Notes under the pieces: generated by a model | What the model saw: the letters and a program-made list of their open reading frames with translations, nothing else | The model's database searches: none | What the model was told of the DNA's origin: nothing | From: Candidatus Altimarinota bacterium | Lineage (GTDB): Bacteria; Patescibacteriota; Gracilibacteria; BD1-5; UBA2023 | Reading direction: 5' to 3' | DNA length: 30,297 bases | NCBI GenBank assembly: GCA_041779175.1 | Contig: JBHBSX010000040.1 | Coordinates: 1-30,297 of the forward strand | Shown: positions 5,285 to 21,879 of the stretch, piece by piece | Numbering within the stretch: position 1 is the first letter of the stretch | Layout of the letters: the number at the start of each line of letters is the position of its first letter | Position numbers and translations under genes: made by a program

Positions 5285-7873
5285 TTATTGAGGATTATTC
5301 TGATTATTATTTGGTTTCTTTTTCTTTTTATTTTTTGAAAAATTTTTGGAAGGCTGATTATTGTTATTATTTGGATTTTTATTTTCTGGTGGTTTGAGTG
5401 TTGGATTTGGATTTTGTGTTGGTGCTGGTGGTTGTGGTACTGGTACTGTATTGCTTCAGTCAAGAACCACGCCACGCGCCGCCAATCTTTCTTCCATTTT
5501 TTTGCGATTTTCTTCGGCTTTTTCTGCTTTTTTCTTTTCTACGGCTTCCATTTGTTTTTGACGATATTTTTGTTCGTCTTCACGGACTTTTGCCGCATAT
5601 TCAAAAATTTTTTTCTCAACAAAATCTCGTTTTTTGGTATATTTTTCTCGAGAAACCTTAAGAAGAACATCACGAGATTGTTGAGCGGGAACATCAATTC
5701 GCGACATAAGTGGCGCGAGTGTTGTCGCCGAAAAAACGGGCGAAGGCATTCCGTCTATGAGCAATTTGGTATAGATATCGTATTTTCTAAGATTTGTCAA
5801 GTCATGTGGCGAAATCACATCTTCTCAGCCAAACATTTCATAGAGTACGCTTGCGTCCTGTTGTCCCACCTGAAAGGAAATAATCGTCCCCACATTTCCA
5901 AATACCGCGCCCTGAACCGTGTCGGCCATCTGAGAGATATATTGATTCGCCATAGTGAGCGAAAGTTTATACTTTCGGGCTTCCGAGAGAATAGTGGCAA
6001 ATGAGTCAGTTGCAAAATTCTGGAATTCGTCGACATACAAGCCAAAATCTCGGCGATCTTTTTCGGGAATATCAGCACGAGTCATGGCTTCAATCTGGAA
6101 TTTGGTAACCATCATGGCACCTAGCAATGCGGAAGAATCTTCCCCAATTCGTCATTTTGAAAGGTTGACAATAAAGATTTTTCCATTGTCCATAATCCAA
6201 CGCATAGAAAATGGATTTTTGGGCTGACCAAGAATATTGCGAAGAATCGGCGAAGAAAGGAATTGTCCTACTTTGTTGAGAATAGGATTCACCGCTTCAG
6301 AAACCATATTTGGCGACATTTTGTCAAATTCTTCATTCCAGAATTGAACAAGCAGCGGATCATCGAGTTTTGCAACAATTTTTTTTCGATATCATTCATT
6401 GGTGAGAATGAGCGGAATAGACACGAGAGTGGCTTCAGGAACGCGAAGAAGCGTGAGAATAGTATTACGAAGAATATATTCCAGACGCGGTCCCCAAGAA
6501 TCCGCAAACATTTTTTTGAAAATCGAAACCAGTCCAGAACCTACAATAGGACGAAGTTCTGGCGATGGCGACTCGAGCATATTGAAAGCAATGGGGAATT
6601 CTGTATCCGCGGGATCAAAAAGCACAATATCATTGGTGCGAGATTTTGGAATAGAACGCAAAATCGTCTCAGCAAGATCGCCATGCGGATCAATGAGCCC
6701 CACGCCTCGTCCCGCAAGAATATCGGAATAAATCATATTTTCAAGTAGCGTCGATTTTCCCATACCCGTTTTTCCGATAATATAAGTATGACGAGCACGA
6801 TCTACCGGCTGAATCCCGAAATTTTCTTTTTTTCCACGAAAATTAGAAACCCCAATTGGTGTGTTCGGTTCTTCGGCATGTGGCAAATTGTGTGGCGGTT
6901 CGAATCGGCGAGTTGTCACCCAATTCACTCAAGGCGTCTTGACATAAATGGTCGGCATGTGCACGAGTCCAGCCAGTTCTGTTACTGAGAGAATGCTTTT
7001 GAATGGGGAATATGGAGTCAGCGTTTGTTCATAAGATTTTCGCAAAATTTTTTTGGAAGGGAGAAACTTGGCTCCATGTGGTGATGAGAAAATTGTGAGA
7101 CTGGATGAGAGTTCTTTGTTGCGATGAGATTTGGTGGACGCAAGCAGAATCCTTGTGGAATAACCATAAGTAGCGAATTTTTCTGAAGTTTCTTCGTCTT
7201 TTTTTTCGGAATTATTTTCGGTTTCTGTTGGTTTTGTGATAAAAATTTGGAGAAAAAATTTTAAAAAAATCCAAGGCCAAGTTATCATCCAAATCCACCA
7301 ATTATGCGATAATTGAAAAATTTTTCTTCTGTCGGAAATATTCGAAGCAATGATTTTTTGAGATTTTTCATCACGAAATCTGTCATCTTCCAGCGGCGAA
7401 AAATCCACACGAAAAAATGAAATTTCGTCTTTTCCAGAGTGTGAAAGCACGGAAGTTATAGGCGAAAGCGGATCAATAGTTTCCTTTTCTGTTCGGTCTT
7501 TGAGATTGACATACAGCTTGATAATTTTGTTGCTGATTTTGTCAAGATGTGCTTCTTGAGTAAAAAATTCTTGTGTTGGCAAAAATGGAAGTTCTGATTC
7601 GGTAATTTCTATGTTATTGTAGTGAGCATAGAGTTGCGATTCAAGAAATTCTTTATATTTTTTTGGGGTTTCAAAGAAAAAACGAATGCGTCCAGCTGCA
7701 TGCACGACTAAAAATCGAAAAGTTGGTCGTTTTCGAAAATTGGGAATCAAAGATTTTTTTTCAAAATTGAGAACATCATGGAGAGTCGAAAGCATTTCTT
7801 TTGCAATAAAAACTCATTTTTCATTGTGGCGATCGACAGCAATTTCGAGAATTTGTGTTTCTTCTTTTTTCAT
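5285..7873 (-). CDS. VirD4/TraD-like type IV coupling-protein family ATPase, 862 aa
   Basis: Single frame with TGA=Gly joins five ORF-track fragments. Walker A GKTGMGKST, LIDPHGDLA, WGPRLEYILRN, Walker B YVDEFQNF and SEARKY. P/N/K-rich low-complexity C-tail. Confidence 0.88.
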
Positions 7874-8642: not shown

Positions 8643-9518
8643 TTTGTCTTCATATTCATCATTATATGGATCAAGATGGAACATAATTGACCATTTGCTT
8701 TCGGTATCAAGTTTTTTGATAGAATCTTCAATTTGATGAGAAACTCTGTGTGCGTCAATAAGTGAAATTTTTTCATTAAAAACCAAATGCGCTTCCACGA
8801 ATTTAATTCCACCTGATTCTCGAGTACGAAAATTGTGATAATCTGTAAGTTTTTTGTTATTATCAAGAATATCAAGAATTTTTTCTACTTGCATTTCATC
8901 CAATGAAACATCAAGAAGGAGCAAAAATCATTTTTTAATAATATCAAAAGCTGAAAAGGCAATATAAATTGCAATTCCCAAACCAATAATTGCATCAATA
9001 AAATACCAATTTGTCCAAGAAATAATAACAAGTCCAGTAAGAATAGCAAGATTGGAGAGGAGATCAGTTTTATAGTGAAGTGAATCTGAAGCAATAACAA
9101 TATTTCTTGTTTTTTTGGCTACAGAATCAAGATAAGTTACCAACGCACCAGTAATGATAACAGAAAAAATCATCACAATCACACCAATTCCTGTTTCTTC
9201 TACTGGTTTATTATAAATAAGTTTAGAAACAGATTCATAAGCAATAAATACGCCAGCCAAAGTTATAATAATTCATTCCAAGAATGCAGCCAATGCTTCA
9301 ATCTTTCCACGACCATAATTGAATTGATCATCAGGATCTTTTCAGGCATTTTTGACAGCAACAAAGTTGAAAATGGAAATTCCCATATCAAGAAGTGAGT
9401 CAATGGCACTTGAAAGAATAGCAATGGATCATGAAAAAATTCAAACAGTAAGTTTTACTCCTGCGAGAATTATGGCGGTTGCTGTGGCTATTATGGTAGC
9501 CTTTTGTTCAATTTTCAT
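8637..9518 (-). CDS. fieF: Cation diffusion facilitator (FieF/YiiP-like), 293 aa
   Basis: MKIEQKATII..., TM2 DSLLD, NYGRGKIE, TM5 DSLHYKTD and C-terminal HLDP. TGA=Gly at several positions. Confidence 0.88.
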
Positions 9519-9601
9519 AAAAATTTTTTAAAAATTTTAATAAAAAATCCCAAACAAAACGGACTAAGAAACTCATTTTGAATGGGGTTTGGAAATCACT
9601 G

Positions 9602-9679
9602 TGGAGGCGCCAATCGGATTTGAACCGATGACTTTAGAGCTTTGCAGGCCCTTGCAATTGACCACTCTGCCATGGCGCC
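9602..9679 (-). tRNA. tRNA-Cys(GCA) with encoded CCA
   Basis: Acceptor stem GGCGCCA/TGGCGCC, anticodon loop CT-GCA-AA, T arm ATCGG-TTCAAAT-CCGAT, discriminator U, then CCA. Confidence 0.95.
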
Positions 9680-9718
9680 AAGTGATTTTATTATATAGAA
9701 AATTTTAAAAATGCAAAT

Positions 9719-10952: not shown

Positions 10953-12014
10953 ATGTTGGAAAGTCTTATTTTGACGAGTTTTCGAGGAATGCAGAATCAG
11001 AATTTTTCTTTTTGACTAAAAAATCATATTATAGGAAAAAATGGTTCTGGCAAAACACATATTCTCGATGCTATACATCTTTTAACTTGAGCAAAAAATT
11101 TATACGGAAATACAAAGTTGGATGCTGGTGACCGTGTTGAGATTTTTTTTGAAAAAAATTTTCAAAAAATTTCATATACTCTTGCTTCTGATGAGAAACG
11201 AGAGTATTTTTTGATTCAATGAAAAAAAATAACGAAACCAAAATATTTGGAAGAATTACCTTTTCGAACAGTATATGTCTCTCCATTTGATATGAATATT
11301 TTGTATTTTTCACCAGCAATGCGACGAGACTATTTGGATGATATTCTTGCTCGTTCATATGCACAATTTGGAAAAATAAAACGAGACTTTGAAAGTGTTA
11401 TGAAACAAAGAAATGCACTTTTAAAAAAAATTCGTGAAGAAAATGTGTGAGAAGATTTTTTGGATTTTTGGGATAAAAAATTTGCGGAAATTGCTGTTAT
11501 TTATGGTATGTATAGGGAAAAATATATTCAATATATTTTTCAAAAAATTTCAGATTTTCCAGAATTTTTTTGACAATATCATATTACTATCAAGTATACT
11601 GGAGATTGGATATATCAGGAAAATCCAGAACTTTTTATTCAAAAATATTTAAAAGAAAATAGAAAACGAGATATTTTTTCTGGTCATACACATATAGGTC
11701 CACATAGGGATGATTTTGAAATTTTAATGAAAAATTCTCAAGAAGAATTACAATCTGTACAATTTTTTTTATCAAGATGAGAGATGAAAATGATTTTATT
11801 ATGATTGAAAGTAATAGAATGTGATTTTATAGCAAAACAAACGGAAAAACATATGGTTTTATTGGTTGATGATATATTTGCAGAACTTGACGAAAATAAT
11901 ATTCTGATTTTCTTAAATATTATTATACAACATCAAATCATTTTGACAAGTCAAAAACCGCTTCCAAACGCGATAAATCCTGAAAAATATACTTGCATAA
12001 ATTTAAGTATTTAG
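10953..12014 (+). CDS. recF: DNA replication/repair protein RecF, 353 aa
   Basis: GKNGSGKT, SPAMRRDYLD, QRNALLK, GPHRDD, LSRGE and LLVDDIFAELD. Single frame with TGA=Gly, TAG stop. Confidence 0.93.
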
Positions 12015-16424: not shown

Positions 16425-17081
16425 ATGGTTGATTATAATCCATTTGCAAAAACATTTTCACAGAGTAGAAAAAATATGAAGTGGCCAGAATTGGATACAA
16501 TTCTTCAGGATATTCAAGAAAATAATTTTAAAAAAATTGTCGATATTGGATGTGGAAATGGTCGATTTGTCGAACAATATATGTCGAAGTTTGGCGAACT
16601 TCCGTCGAACTATACTGGTGTCGATGCATCAGAGATTCTTGTTCAGGAAGCGAAAAAAACATTTCCAAATCAAGAATTTATTGTGTCGACAATGCAAGAT
16701 TTTGTGTCAAAGTTGGCGAAGAAAATTGTCGATAATGTCGAAGATAAGTTTGACGCTATTGTGTTTTTGGCTTCATTTCATCACTTGGAAACAGAACAAG
16801 AAAGAATTCAAGTACTTTCTGATTGTAAAAAATTTTTGAAAAAAAATTGAAAAATATACCTCACAAATTGGAACTTACTTCCACAAGAAAAATATAAAAA
16901 TTCCCACACTGGCAATGGAGATTTTCAGATAAAAATTTGAGAATTTTATAGATACTATCATTGATTTAGTCTTGAAGAACTGGAATATATTTTTCATAAA
17001 AGTGGTTTTTATATTGAAAAAAATGAAATTTTTTCATGAGAAAGAAATATTTTTTCTATACTCACACATGAAATTTTGTAA
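16425..17081 (+). CDS. Class I SAM methyltransferase, Trm9/ALKBH8-like, 218 aa
   Basis: YNPFAKTFSQSR...WP, VDIGCGNGR, LASFHHL and C-terminal RYYH[G]F. Confidence 0.8.
16537..16743 (+). repeat. Intragenic array of short TG[T/G]CGA motifs
   Basis: GTCGA at 16539, 16561, 16569, 16583, 16604, 16620, 16685, 16728 and 16737, plus TTGGCGAA at 16591 and 16713. Confidence 0.85.
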
Positions 17082-19476: not shown

Positions 19477-21879
19477 ATGCAAATGTCACAATTTGAGGTA
19501 TATATGCTTCGCTTGAAGCGATATTTTAAAAACCTCGATAGAATCGGAAAAATGTGGTATGTTATAGGAGCATTTTCATTGGTGCTTATTATGACATTAT
19601 TTTCTTTTACTGTTATCAATCATAGTTTTTATACAGAATTGGCAGCGAAACTGCAAAAAACCACGGTTTCAAATGCGGTTTCTCGTGGGACAATTTCTTC
19701 GAGCGAAGAATCTATTGCGGGGACAGTGGCGGTTTCAACGGATTTGGGAACTCTAGCTATTGATCCAACGCAGTCATGATCTACAGTGAAATTGCTTGAC
19801 ATGCTAGGAAATGCTGTGATGAATGAGTTCTGTACGCATAATGCGCATGAAGAATGTGTGCAGAAAATCGGATTATATGTGCGAGATGAAACATTGGTAA
19901 ATAATGCAGCCATTACAAAAGATCAACTCAATGAACGTGTGAAAACATATTTGCAAGAAAGAATGTCAGCGCCAGTGGAAAGTGTGTTTATTGAGGAAAA
20001 TCTGTGAGATGAGGCAATTCGTCAGATCAATGATCTCAATGATCCGGCATTGTTTTTTTCTTCTAATAATCTTTATGTGAATCCAACTTTGGTAAAAAAT
20101 GCTGATGATCTATCAAATAAATTGGCAAAAATTTTAAATAAAAATGCTGAAGAAATATCACCAAAAATGGTGATTCGTCCAAAGCGTTATCTGGAAGTGA
20201 TTCGTAAAATGAGTATTTCAACACGTAATCTAGTGGAAGAGTCTTTGGAAAAAAATATAAAAATCACATCAGAAGCTATCAAAAGCGCGAGAGATCAGGT
20301 TTCGAGTACAGAAGAAAAGGATGCTGCAAGAAAAACGGCTATTATGGAGCATGCGATTTACCCTTTTGTAACCATTACTCCGAATCCTGTTCGGTATTAT
20401 CCTGAAGGGGCTTCTATGGGGCAAATTACGGGTTATGTGGATGCGGCTGGAGTTGGGCATTATGGTGTGGAATGATATTTTGAAGAAGCATTGCAGGGAG
20501 ATACTCCAACGCAAGTGATTACTAAAGATATCAAGTGACGTCCTCTGCGTGACTATACGTCCAGCGGTGCTCTCACTATGAAAAATGGTGTTGATATTAC
20601 ACTGACTATTGACAGAAATATTCAAAAAGAAATTTCAAAAATTCTTGAAAGAAATGTAAAAAATTTCCGTGCAAATCGCGGAAGTGTGGTGGTAACTGAT
20701 CCAAAAACTGGTGCTATTCTCGCAATGGCTAATTATCCAAACTATGATCCGAATCAGTTTACTGCGGTTGGAGAATTGGAGCCAGTATTGTATCAGGATT
20801 ATAAAAATCCAGCCTATGATCTTTTTGGATATCCTATGTTTGTGGTAGATTCACAAAATGGAACTATTTCACACAATATTGATGGAAAACTCATGAAATT
20901 GCGTCCAGCAACGGATGATGAAATTGGTAATTCTGCTATTCAAAAATTTAAATACAAAAATGGATTTGGTGCGGGAAATTATCAAAATAGTGTAATATCA
21001 GCATTGTATGAACCGGGATCGGTATTTAAAGCCATAACGGTGGCTATTGGTCTTGATACTGGGGAAATCAAGCCAACACAAAGTTATTATGATAGAAACT
21101 CGGTGACTATTGAATATGGTGGTGGCGCAAAAACCGTTATTAACAACTATTCAAAGGCTCGTTGTGGCGGTTGGCATACATATACTTACGGACTGAATTG
21201 GTCGTGTAATGTTGGTATGATTGATATTGTAGAAAAAGTTGGTCGTTCACTATTTGATTCTTATGTTCGTAATTTTGGTTTTAGTGCCAAGACAAATGTA
21301 ACCATGGATGGTGAGGTATTTGCACAAATTGCTCCATATGACAAGTGGTCACGTGCACGATTTTTTACTATGTCATTTGGGCAAGGTATCAGTGTAACTA
21401 TGCTTCAAATGGCTGCCGCCTATAATGCACTTGCAAATGGTGGTATATATATGCAACCATATATTGTAGAAAAAACAGTATATCCAAATGGAAAAGAAGT
21501 AAAAACAGTTCCAGTTCCTGTTCGCCGTGTTATTAAGGAGGAAACTTCCAAAACTATTACTGCTATGCTGGTGGATGGTGCCAAAAATGGTTATGCCGCT
21601 TCTGGTGCGGTTCCATGATATTCTATGGCAGGAAAAACAGGAACTGCACAGATTCCATATAAAGGAACATATGAAAACTTGTATTTTAATATGGCGGTTG
21701 GTCATACAGTAACGTCTTATGGTGGATATGCTCCTGCATATAATCCAAAATTTGTTATGATTGTAATGCTTGAGCGTCCGAGAACATCGGCAGATTCAGA
21801 AAAAACCGCTTCCTTTCTCTATAAAGAAATTGCTGAATATCTGCTCACATACTATAAAGTGCCAAAATGGCAAGAATAA
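19477..21879 (+). CDS. Class B penicillin-binding protein (FtsI/PBP2 family), 800 aa
   Basis: N-terminal TM, RYYP, [G]VE[G]Y, LTID, EPGSVFK (SxxK), WSCN (SxN) and AGKTGTAQ (KTG). Single frame with TGA=Gly. Confidence 0.93.

Follow-up and report, generated by a model that had tools for sequence, protein, structure and literature searches.

Introduction

Phased arrays of short binding sites near an origin of replication are a known kind of bacterial DNA element, and several described systems bear on the locus reported here. In Corynebacterium glutamicum, about ten parS sites lie within about 35 kb near oriC, where they are bound by ParB. Repeat-type centromeres and iterons include the 11-bp repeats of R1 parC, which are bound by ParR, as well as parH of TP228 and the omega heptads of pSM19035. 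At E. coli oriC, DnaA fills arrays of 9-mers that are spaced 2 bp apart. Regulators of the OmpR/PhoB type bind direct hexamer repeats at 10-11 bp, as in the WalR and PhoP/PhoB boxes, and DNA uptake sequences (DUS/USS) are over-represented genome-wide at about one copy per kb. Here we analyse a stretch of 30,297 nucleotides (the window) from Candidatus Altimarinota bacterium (assembly GCA_041779175.1, contig JBHBSX010000040.1, positions 1 to 30,297), in which a short segment within a methyltransferase gene (the island; 16539-16741, plus strand) carries nine GTCGA together with two GGCGA, one GTCAA and one AGCGA, each of them on the sense strand of that gene. The island is a selected DNA-level element, made up of 11-13 co-oriented copies of the asymmetric unit T-G-(T/G)-C-G-A-(A/T), and it is one of many such arrays in its genome and in the relatives of this bacterium. 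While the kind of element is known, the motif, its overprinting on genes and the lineage that hosts it are new.

The arrays resemble parS clusters in that many copies of a short word are found in a few tens of kilobases beside what is probably the origin, mostly within genes and conserved among relatives, and also in the presumed function of marking an origin domain. They are unlike parS clusters in that the arrays are built from an asymmetric 7-mer in phased direct repetition rather than from a single 16-bp palindrome, and in that the parS consensus, ParB and ParA were not found in the searches described below. With iterons and ParR-parC systems the arrays share head-to-tail units about one helical turn apart and a tolerance of mixed direct and inverted units. 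Such systems rely on small oligomerising proteins that bind cooperatively, and this likeness to the arrays is a predicted one. However, iterons and parC form a single intergenic plasmid locus adjoining par or rep genes, whereas here 15-20 arrays are spread over chromosomal housekeeping genes in about 35 kb, with no adjacent partner gene recognised.

Results

The genome to which the window belongs (G000) comprises 1.02 Mb in 159 contigs, with 32% GC and 81% completeness; like all genomes compared here, it is a metagenome-assembled genome (MAG). A congener in six contigs (G001) served as the main comparison. The island lies in a gene on the plus strand (16425-17081, including the stop codon) that under translation table 25 encodes a 218-aa class-I S-adenosylmethionine (SAM)-dependent methyltransferase. 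The protein matches Methyltransf_11/25/12 of Pfam (E ~6e-14) and no DNA-methyltransferase domain of that database, as befits a generic class-I enzyme. The island spans codons 39-106, that is, SAM-binding motif I and the helices after it. Its GTCGA copies start at 16539, 16561, 16569, 16583, 16604, 16620, 16685, 16728 and 16737 on the plus strand, and variant units are found at 16593 and 16715 (GGCGA), 16706 (GTCAA) and 16649 (AGCGA). Sub-array A (16539-16624, plus strand) consists of seven co-oriented units, namely the first six GTCGA copies and the GGCGA at 16593, with spacings in order of 22, 8, 14, 10, 11 and 16 bp; at three of these positions, the aligned sequences of G001 and of another relative, G003, read G[GT]CGA (GTCGA, GGCGA and GGCGA). 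Sub-array B (16685-16741, plus strand) comprises the GTCGA copies at 16685, 16728 and 16737, the GGCGA at 16715 and the degenerate GTCAA at 16706, and its orthologues display the tandem TTGGCGAAG-TTTGGCGAAG. The first unit of sub-array B is embedded in the palindrome TGTCGACA (16683-16690), which can be read on both strands (GTCGA at 16685 on the plus strand and at 16686 on the minus strand) and whose TCGACA half is retained in G001 and G003.

A first-pass annotation of the window, made by inspection of the letters, had counted nine GTCGA in the island and eight in the remaining 30 kb. These counts, which amount to 17 plus-strand copies, and all of the coordinates given for them are correct, and the same is true for the GGCGA and GTCAA variants, for the recurring sub-blocks (including a 13-nt recurrence at 16533 and 16722) and for the observation that only the island copy at 16685 also reads GTCGA on the minus strand. 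The annotation had further remarked that the copies occur in three codon phases and make use of GTC and TCG codons that are otherwise uncommon. Indeed, with the frame counted from 16425, five copies are in phase 0, one is in phase 1 and three are in phase 2, and the codons involved are uncommon throughout the genome, GTC accounting for 7% of Val, TCG for 9% of Ser and CGA for 19% of Arg codons.

A chance origin of the island is excluded. GTCGA is under-represented in the genome, with 279 and 304 copies on the two strands of the 1.02 Mb, and the Poisson expectation for finding at least nine copies in 203 bp anywhere in this sequence is ~3e-11. TCGA as such is mildly under-represented as well (2105 observed versus ~3000 expected). 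Codon-shuffled simulations, which the first-pass annotation had named as a possible refutation, do not reproduce the observed density. The 70-aa peptide encoded by 16536-16745 permits a maximum of ten GTCGA, of which nine are present, while synonymous resampling of this peptide with the codon usage of the genome (200,000 trials) yields a mean of ~0.5 and a maximum of five. Permuting the synonymous codons of the host gene itself never reached nine copies in 50,000 trials. When rare 5-mers were compared, clustering other than in homopolymers and true tandem repeats was seen for just two, GTCGA and TGTCG, which overlap. The island is a genuine feature, extreme in statistical terms, and the units are written onto the methyltransferase codons through the choice of rare codons and, in places, through the choice of amino acids. 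That the signal resides in the DNA rather than in protein repeats, as had been proposed, is borne out by the use of three phases and of both strands and by the colinearity of the proteins with their homologues.

The array family to which the island belongs, ~15-20 arrays of TGKCGAW (K, G or T; W, A or T) in G000 and relatives, occurs on either strand relative to the host gene. TGKCGA, the degenerate form that the first-pass annotation had put forward, turned out to be the right core. The extended consensus of array sites has T at position -1 (90%) and A/T at +5, +7 and +8, and the unit is asymmetric, TGTCGAW, because of this T and of the W flanks. GGCGA and, less often, AGCGA are alternative units. 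At a distance of 10-11 bp to either side of a GTCGA, the enrichment of a second copy on the same strand amounts to 48-fold in G000 and 17-fold in G001; for a same-strand GGCGA it is 6-fold and 4-fold, respectively. The same-strand spacing peaks are sharp in both genomes, at 10-11 and at 21-22 bp, and runs of three to six units exist (e.g. G000 C12:11483-11545). Orientation is uniform inside an array and has no fixed relation to the coding strand or to the position in the domain; the strand polarity noticed in the first pass thus holds within each array but not across the domain. One array of G000 (C7:2023-2076) apparently lies between genes, in a place where gene calls are uncertain. The same 15-17-mers recur between arrays of different genes. 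A dispersed repeat or mobile element was considered and rejected, as BLAST of three arrays against the genome returned short word matches only and no longer homology, and so was a compositional island or foreign DNA, the GC content being 0.30-0.35 over the island and its flanks alike.

A marker of three units in register was detected in 13 of 401 genomes of the class, with a reversed-pattern control near zero. The marker genomes include all four members of the genus of G000 and, within the same family, representatives of three to five further genera; in the sister family the marker is present in none of 31 genomes, and elsewhere there are three isolated, dissimilar cases. DnaA identity splits these same array genera from the rest of the family (72-86% versus at most 60%). 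When the 18-mer TGTCGAAGTTTGTCGAAG was looked up in public collections, four viral and 41 genome matches were obtained, about six of which belong to Gracilibacteria or Patescibacteria, and the remaining matches are single occurrences at roughly chance level. Full-text literature searches found no prior description of the motif or of Gracilibacteria origins.

A GTCGA-containing sequence of a different sort occurs at the ends of two contigs of G000 (C82:1-125 and C15:1-121), where a 22-bp perfect tandem repeat, GTCATCCTGAGCGAAGTCGAAG, is present in at least 11 copies that are split by the assembly break. This repeat is intergenic, has one GTCGA per unit and ends in the hairpin-capable GTCATCC...GGATG. 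We considered it as a member of the array family and rejected it: it is a separate thing, confined to G000 and absent from G001.

Genomes of at least four genera keep their arrays in the same positions; synonymous sites up to ~3 nt from the motif are constrained while spacer codons are free. In the array-gene orthologues of G000 and G001 (~75% nucleotide identity), motif 5-mers are identical in 51% of cases versus 26% for other CG-containing 5-mers (P = 8e-5), and synonymous codons under the motif are identical in 75% versus 57% (P = 1e-4). Outside array genes, motif copies are no better conserved than background (19% identical). At third positions, identity drops from 0.75 within the motif to 0.73 in the adjoining 1-3 nt, 0.63 at 4-9 nt and 0.56-0.60 farther out. 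Since the extra conservation is confined to the motif and its immediate flanks, a locally low divergence is argued against. In an alignment of trxB from 28 genomes, the array GTCGA-N6-GTCGA-N5-GGCGA, which encodes RVExVSKIGE, is found at identical columns in 11 genomes, which represent four genera, and no more than one unit per genome is weakened to GGCGA or lost, while the spacer codon between the first two units specifies seven different residues (V, G, E, S, R, T and I). The array site contains a one-codon insertion that is missing in 17 outgroup genomes, and the array is found neither in the remaining genera of the family nor in any of the 12 sister-family genomes examined. Five other columns of trxB hold further units with the same kind of sharing among genomes. 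In uvrA (six genomes, four genera), 52% of the units share their column with another genus versus 31% for controls (P = 6e-7), and thirteen columns are common to three or four genera. Conservation of the clusters in orthologues, which the first-pass annotation had raised as a point to be checked, is thus borne out.

For the island itself, the methyltransferase orthologue of G001 and G003 (~75% nucleotide identity) retains G[GT]CGA in four to five of the eleven places, and a GTCGAAG of G000 often corresponds to GGCGAAG there. The gene of G000 has gained extra copies, and the orthologue of the more distant G002 is without them. An older and weaker array thus pre-existed at the site of the island and was intensified in the species of G000, in which the island is the densest array.

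The arrays are concentrated in one syntenic block. Of the 18 arrays of G001, 13 fall within C2:64-97 kb, as do 17 of its 19 phased pairs (binomial 2.5e-23); words of the TGTCGAAG type are concentrated there too, and the density of TGTCGAA in C2:60-100 kb exceeds that in the rest of the genome 8.5-fold. On the 683-kb contig C1 there is no pair phased at 10-11 bp, and the arrays number three, all weak. Clusters of G000 are found on C7 (6.6 copies per kb over comM, trxB, uvrA and pepA), C12, C64 (glyA) and others, and in G015, nine of 13 phased pairs lie within 45 kb (binomial 2e-10). The syntenic block is array-rich in G002, G015, G042 and G083 too (four genera). It measures ~35-45 kb and includes rpmH-rnpA-yidC, ATPases of a type IV secretion system (T4SS), comM, trxB, uvrA, pepA, glyA and comEC. 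Within the block, comM, trxB, uvrA, pepA, glyA, comEC and the genes for the methyltransferase, a pyruvyl transferase and a VirB4-like ATPase carry 3-9 GTCGA per kb.

The array block is probably origin-proximal, because it lies beside a minimum of GC skew. In G001, the cumulative GC skew climbs along C1:0-350 kb and then declines as far as ~650 kb, so that the terminus maps to ~350-400 kb, while C2 shows the opposite V with a minimum at ~100-105 kb; an origin at this minimum would result in balanced replichores of ~470 and ~480 kb. On C4 of G015, a genome that is not closed and in which skew is weak, the skew minimum at 40-45 kb adjoins the densest arrays at 45-57 kb. Gene content points in the same direction: in a survey of candidate phyla radiation (CPR) genomes, rpmH-rnpA-yidC and T4SS ATPase genes are typically located near dnaA and the putative origin (10.1101/2025.01.22.634366), and rpmH-rnpA-yidC and the VirB4-like ATPase gene are present in the array block. 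The clusters thus show the positional bias, towards one syntenic block beside the skew minimum, that the first-pass annotation had set against random scatter.

Inside the array block of G001, an AT-rich divergent intergenic region (C2:91783-92338; 24% GC) contains repeated TTTTCACA/TGTGAAAAA boxes, the best such cluster in this genome. The matching syntenic gaps of G015, G083 and G002 have 21-24% GC, and synteny is kept in five genomes. No TGTCGA unit was found in the intergenic region at 91.8-92.3 kb, which we infer to be a candidate oriC. A second candidate, the gap at C2:99.4-100 kb of G001, was rejected, as it has no arrays of boxes or units. Elsewhere in G001, the end of the other large contig (C1:660-683 kb) exhibits a strong local GC skew (+0.08 to +0.15), a doubled GTCGA density and the only ParB_N match of the genome (a 161-aa frame); this segment may be an integrated mobile element.

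Searches for canonical partition components were largely negative. ParA (AAA_31) was found in 0 of 4 clade genomes versus 14 of 14 controls. ParB_N was not found in G000 (81% complete), G002 and G003, and in the order as a whole it occurs sporadically, in 13 of 61 genomes. For the parS consensus TGTTNCACGTGAAACA, a 16-bp palindrome, the matches in G000, G001 and G015 are at chance level, each with two mismatches, and resemble those of a reversed control, and a long SMC protein was not found in the four clade genomes searched, in which SMC_N matches are RecF-sized only. Several candidate binders were tried and rejected. MraZ (PF02381) is present in 0 of 61 genomes of the order; OmpR-type regulators, with two to five Trans_reg_C proteins per genome (those of G000 include C46:3393-3608 and C72:1571-1786), are not restricted to the clade, and the block encodes none of them; and a protein of the G001 block with Sigma70_r4 and HARE-HTH domains, which in G000 is encoded at C97:1236-2273, is universal in the order, has an invariant first helix-turn-helix and does not track the arrays. 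By Pfam, no other DNA-binding protein and no Par or Rep gene was found among the ~30 genes of the G001 block. Relative to E. coli, domain IV of DnaA (G000 C43:7594-9018 and 29 orthologues) has the changes P423E, D433N and H439Y, all at positions of base contact, throughout the order, which suggests a non-canonical DnaA box in this order; only T435 and M438 separate the array clade from outgroups.

The reading frames given here depend on the genetic code. TGA as a sense codon for Gly, as in table 25 (Gracilibacteria/SR1), fits the sequence of G000 (in the window, e.g. 16848-16850, 5288-7873 and 19477-21876), since TGA aligns with Gly codons of orthologues (e.g. in the VAIGS segment of TrxB), since ORFs of 800-860 aa across the window exist only with TGA read-through and since the relatives are deposited as Candidatus Gracilibacteria, which provides a third line of support. 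The methyltransferase open reading frame (ORF) at 16425-17081 has four in-frame TGA codons; table 11 closes it at TGA, while table 25 reads through.

Among the other features of the window is a gene on the minus strand (5288-7873) for a VirD4/TraG-like type IV coupling protein of 862 aa (TrwB_AAD_bind, TraG-D_C), with five GTCGA; its orthologue in G001 (C2:34435-37425) has 14 GTCGA and one array. A RecF-like SMC_N protein is encoded at 10953-12011 on the plus strand. The sole Rfam match of the window, read by ARAGORN as tRNA-Cys, is a tRNA-Cys(GCA) gene at 9602-9679 on the minus strand, which overlaps the 3' end of a long table-25 frame (8676-9695, plus strand) that is probably spurious. Relative to C2 of G001, the window is a mosaic of segments from 18-21, 24-37 and 65-70 kb, together with two genes from C1 (~397-400 kb). 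The methyltransferase array has been retained despite new neighbours in the window, Era upstream and YebC downstream.

Discussion

Why a bacterium should write phased copies of one short word into its housekeeping genes is most readily understood if the arrays are bound cooperatively by a protein and mark an origin-proximal domain, with a layout like that of parS clusters and an architecture like that of iterons, ParR-type centromeres and DnaA arrays. We put this forward as a tentative reading, one that in our judgement falls just short of an even chance. The asymmetric unit, the register of one helical turn, the local co-orientation, the conservation limited to the unit, the indifference to strand and frame and the tolerance of a compromise unit together form the signature of cooperative protein binding. 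A sequence-specific DNA-binding protein would occupy the arrays cooperatively, its copies lined up head to tail along a single helix face in an oligomer, and the arrays would jointly mark or organise the origin-proximal domain, either with a function analogous to that of a parS cluster or centromere or as a cluster of initiator-titrating sites. Since the genome is almost entirely coding, the sites must be overprinted on genes, and GGCGA would represent the compromise unit (GGC for Gly) where the protein sequence demands it. The non-canonical parS or iteron-like array that the first-pass annotation had proposed is the best-fitting of its suggestions, while the chromosome-organising role attached to it would have to be exerted by a binder that our searches did not find.

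Several observations weigh against this reading. No binder was identified, as ParB, ParA, SMC, MraZ, DnaA domain IV, the OmpR-type regulators and the Sigma70_r4/HARE-HTH protein all fail to track the arrays. The loss of ParABS is order-wide and not specific to the array clade, and therefore the arrays are not a simple replacement of ParABS. Moreover, interspersed neighbouring genes carry zero arrays, and a pure domain-marking role would not predict such a gene-specific density. The placement of the origin is derived from skew, gene content and contig order in a clade with weak skew and no closed genome; the skew of G042 and G083 is too flat to decide, and dnaA is located on a different contig in every clade genome examined. 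Finally, the helical phasing of the window's own island is just moderate (Rayleigh R ~0.55 at 10.25-11.25 bp), the strong 10-11 bp signal being that of the array family as a whole, and the neighbours of the host gene differ between the window and G001, so that the distance of the methyltransferase from the origin may be a different one in G000.

It is conceivable, if improbable, that the arrays serve replication control, with oligomers of DnaA or of a DnaA regulator assembling on them to titrate or modulate the initiator near oriC. With datA, DARS, the B. subtilis DnaA-box clusters and low-affinity oriC arrays they share co-orientation, a register of ~11 bp and a location near the probable origin, beside the skew minimum, and units at 10-11 bp match the manner in which DnaA fills arrays of 9-mers. 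Indeed, TTGTCGAAG shares six of nine positions with the actinobacterial box TTGTCCACA, and both the departures of DnaA domain IV from E. coli and the clade-specific differences at T435 and M438 could accommodate an unusual box. However, the arrays do not fit TTWTNCACA, TTGTCGAAG mismatching three of the four core CACA positions, and the DnaA residues do not track the arrays, the unusual residues of domain IV being order-wide and the arrays clade-specific. Furthermore, no arrays adjoin dnaA, and the best oriC candidate has TTTTCACA boxes, the candidate oriC boxes of this clade, but no TGTCGA units.

A role in DNA translocation or transfer is a less probable scenario still. The arrays would then be recognition sites that promote export or import of the block, akin to the clt/TRS sequences of Streptomyces TraB, to the KOPS of FtsK or to uptake sequences. 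CPR T4SS loci are mostly without relaxases (10.1101/2025.01.22.634366). The block or window encodes the VirD4-like coupling protein (5288-7873), the VirB4-like ATPase, ComEC and ComM, and several array genes handle DNA (uvrA, comM, comEC and those of the T4SS ATPases), but trxB, glyA, pepA and the methyltransferase gene have no connection with DNA transfer. Uptake sequences and KOPS occur genome-wide and are not limited to 35 kb, whereas GTCGA is under-represented genome-wide and the arrays are confined to one block without domain-wide polarity.

Much the same doubt applies to the idea that the arrays are operators of OmpR/PhoB-type winged-helix transcription factors, which would regulate the host genes internally by way of roadblocks or internal promoters. 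WalR and PhoP/PhoB boxes have the same architecture as TGTCGA-N4/5-TGTCGA, and as in the operators TGTWAH-N5-TGTWAH, a hexamer starting with TGT is repeated head-to-tail every 10-11 bp. Proteins that could bind in this way are encoded in each genome, namely the two to five with Trans_reg_C. Yet, the sites reside mid-gene, on either strand and outside promoters, their confinement to one chromosomal block is unlike a regulon, and the regulators are neither specific to the clade nor linked to the block.

We regard it as very unlikely that the arrays are clusters of methylation sites (TCGA or GTCGA), as the first-pass annotation had also suggested, that act through hemimethylation after replication in the manner of GATC and SeqA. 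The arrays do recall the GATC clusters of E. coli (Dam/SeqA), including those at oriC, in that a short word is clustered in particular genes with helical spacing, conserved in relatives and close to the probable origin. Most units contain the palindrome TCGA, which is mildly under-represented in the genome. However, the unit is asymmetric, with strongly asymmetric flanks (T at -1 in nine tenths of array sites), the conserved GGCGA members are without TCGA, and the host gene encodes a generic enzyme without a match to a DNA-methyltransferase domain.

A signal in mRNA or translation, be it a cluster of rare codons that slows ribosomes, an RNA structure or an RNA-protein site, has a similarly slight probability. 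Each unit does make rare codons, and the RNA fold of the island beats those of shuffled sequences (z -3.6), but a good fold is to be expected because of the repeated self-complementary TCGA cores. What is repeated is a single specific word and not rare codons generally, the units occur in three phases and antisense in many host genes, and a spacing of 10-11 bp is not a multiple of 3. In addition, the array at C7:2023-2076 of G000 is apparently intergenic, gene calls there being uncertain. The RNA-level element of the first-pass annotation is further contradicted by the lack of an Rfam match and of covariation (covariation term +1.9, 1/55 compensatory pairs).

That the arrays have no function and are a by-product of local mutation or gene conversion, foreign DNA or an assembly artefact is largely refuted: although identical 15-17-mers across different genes are what concerted evolution could give and every genome is a MAG, the same codons carry arrays in independent assemblies of four genera, conservation stays within ~3 nt of the motif while spacers vary, the GC content of the island is like that of its flanks and BLAST found no repeat family.

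If the arrays are cooperative binding sites that mark an origin-proximal domain, a more far-reaching proposal can be framed, which we consider possible but doubtful: code-25 Gracilibacteria may possess a hitherto undescribed, ParABS-independent system for marking the origin domain, in which an oligomerising protein would read phased TGKCGAW arrays as a chromosomal centromere or origin organiser. In such a system, overprinting would be old enough for changed amino acids and an inserted codon to have become fixed in enzymes, TrxB being an example.

The arrays are a case of dual coding, in which a code for DNA recognition is laid over the protein code with a near-saturating choice of codons and shapes conserved enzymes, as exemplified by RVExVSKIGE and the extra codon of TrxB. 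The motif and its map are ready reagents, as they provide oligonucleotide baits such as (TGTCGAAGTT)n, targets for DNA affinity purification sequencing (DAP-seq) and a basis for coverage-based origin mapping. The arrays also constitute a marker of a clade of oral and animal-associated Gracilibacteria and may aid the ordering of contigs around the origin. More generally, they offer a handle on the replication and organisation of chromosomes in uncultivated, host-associated CPR bacteria that do without the usual ParABS and whose origins are unmapped.

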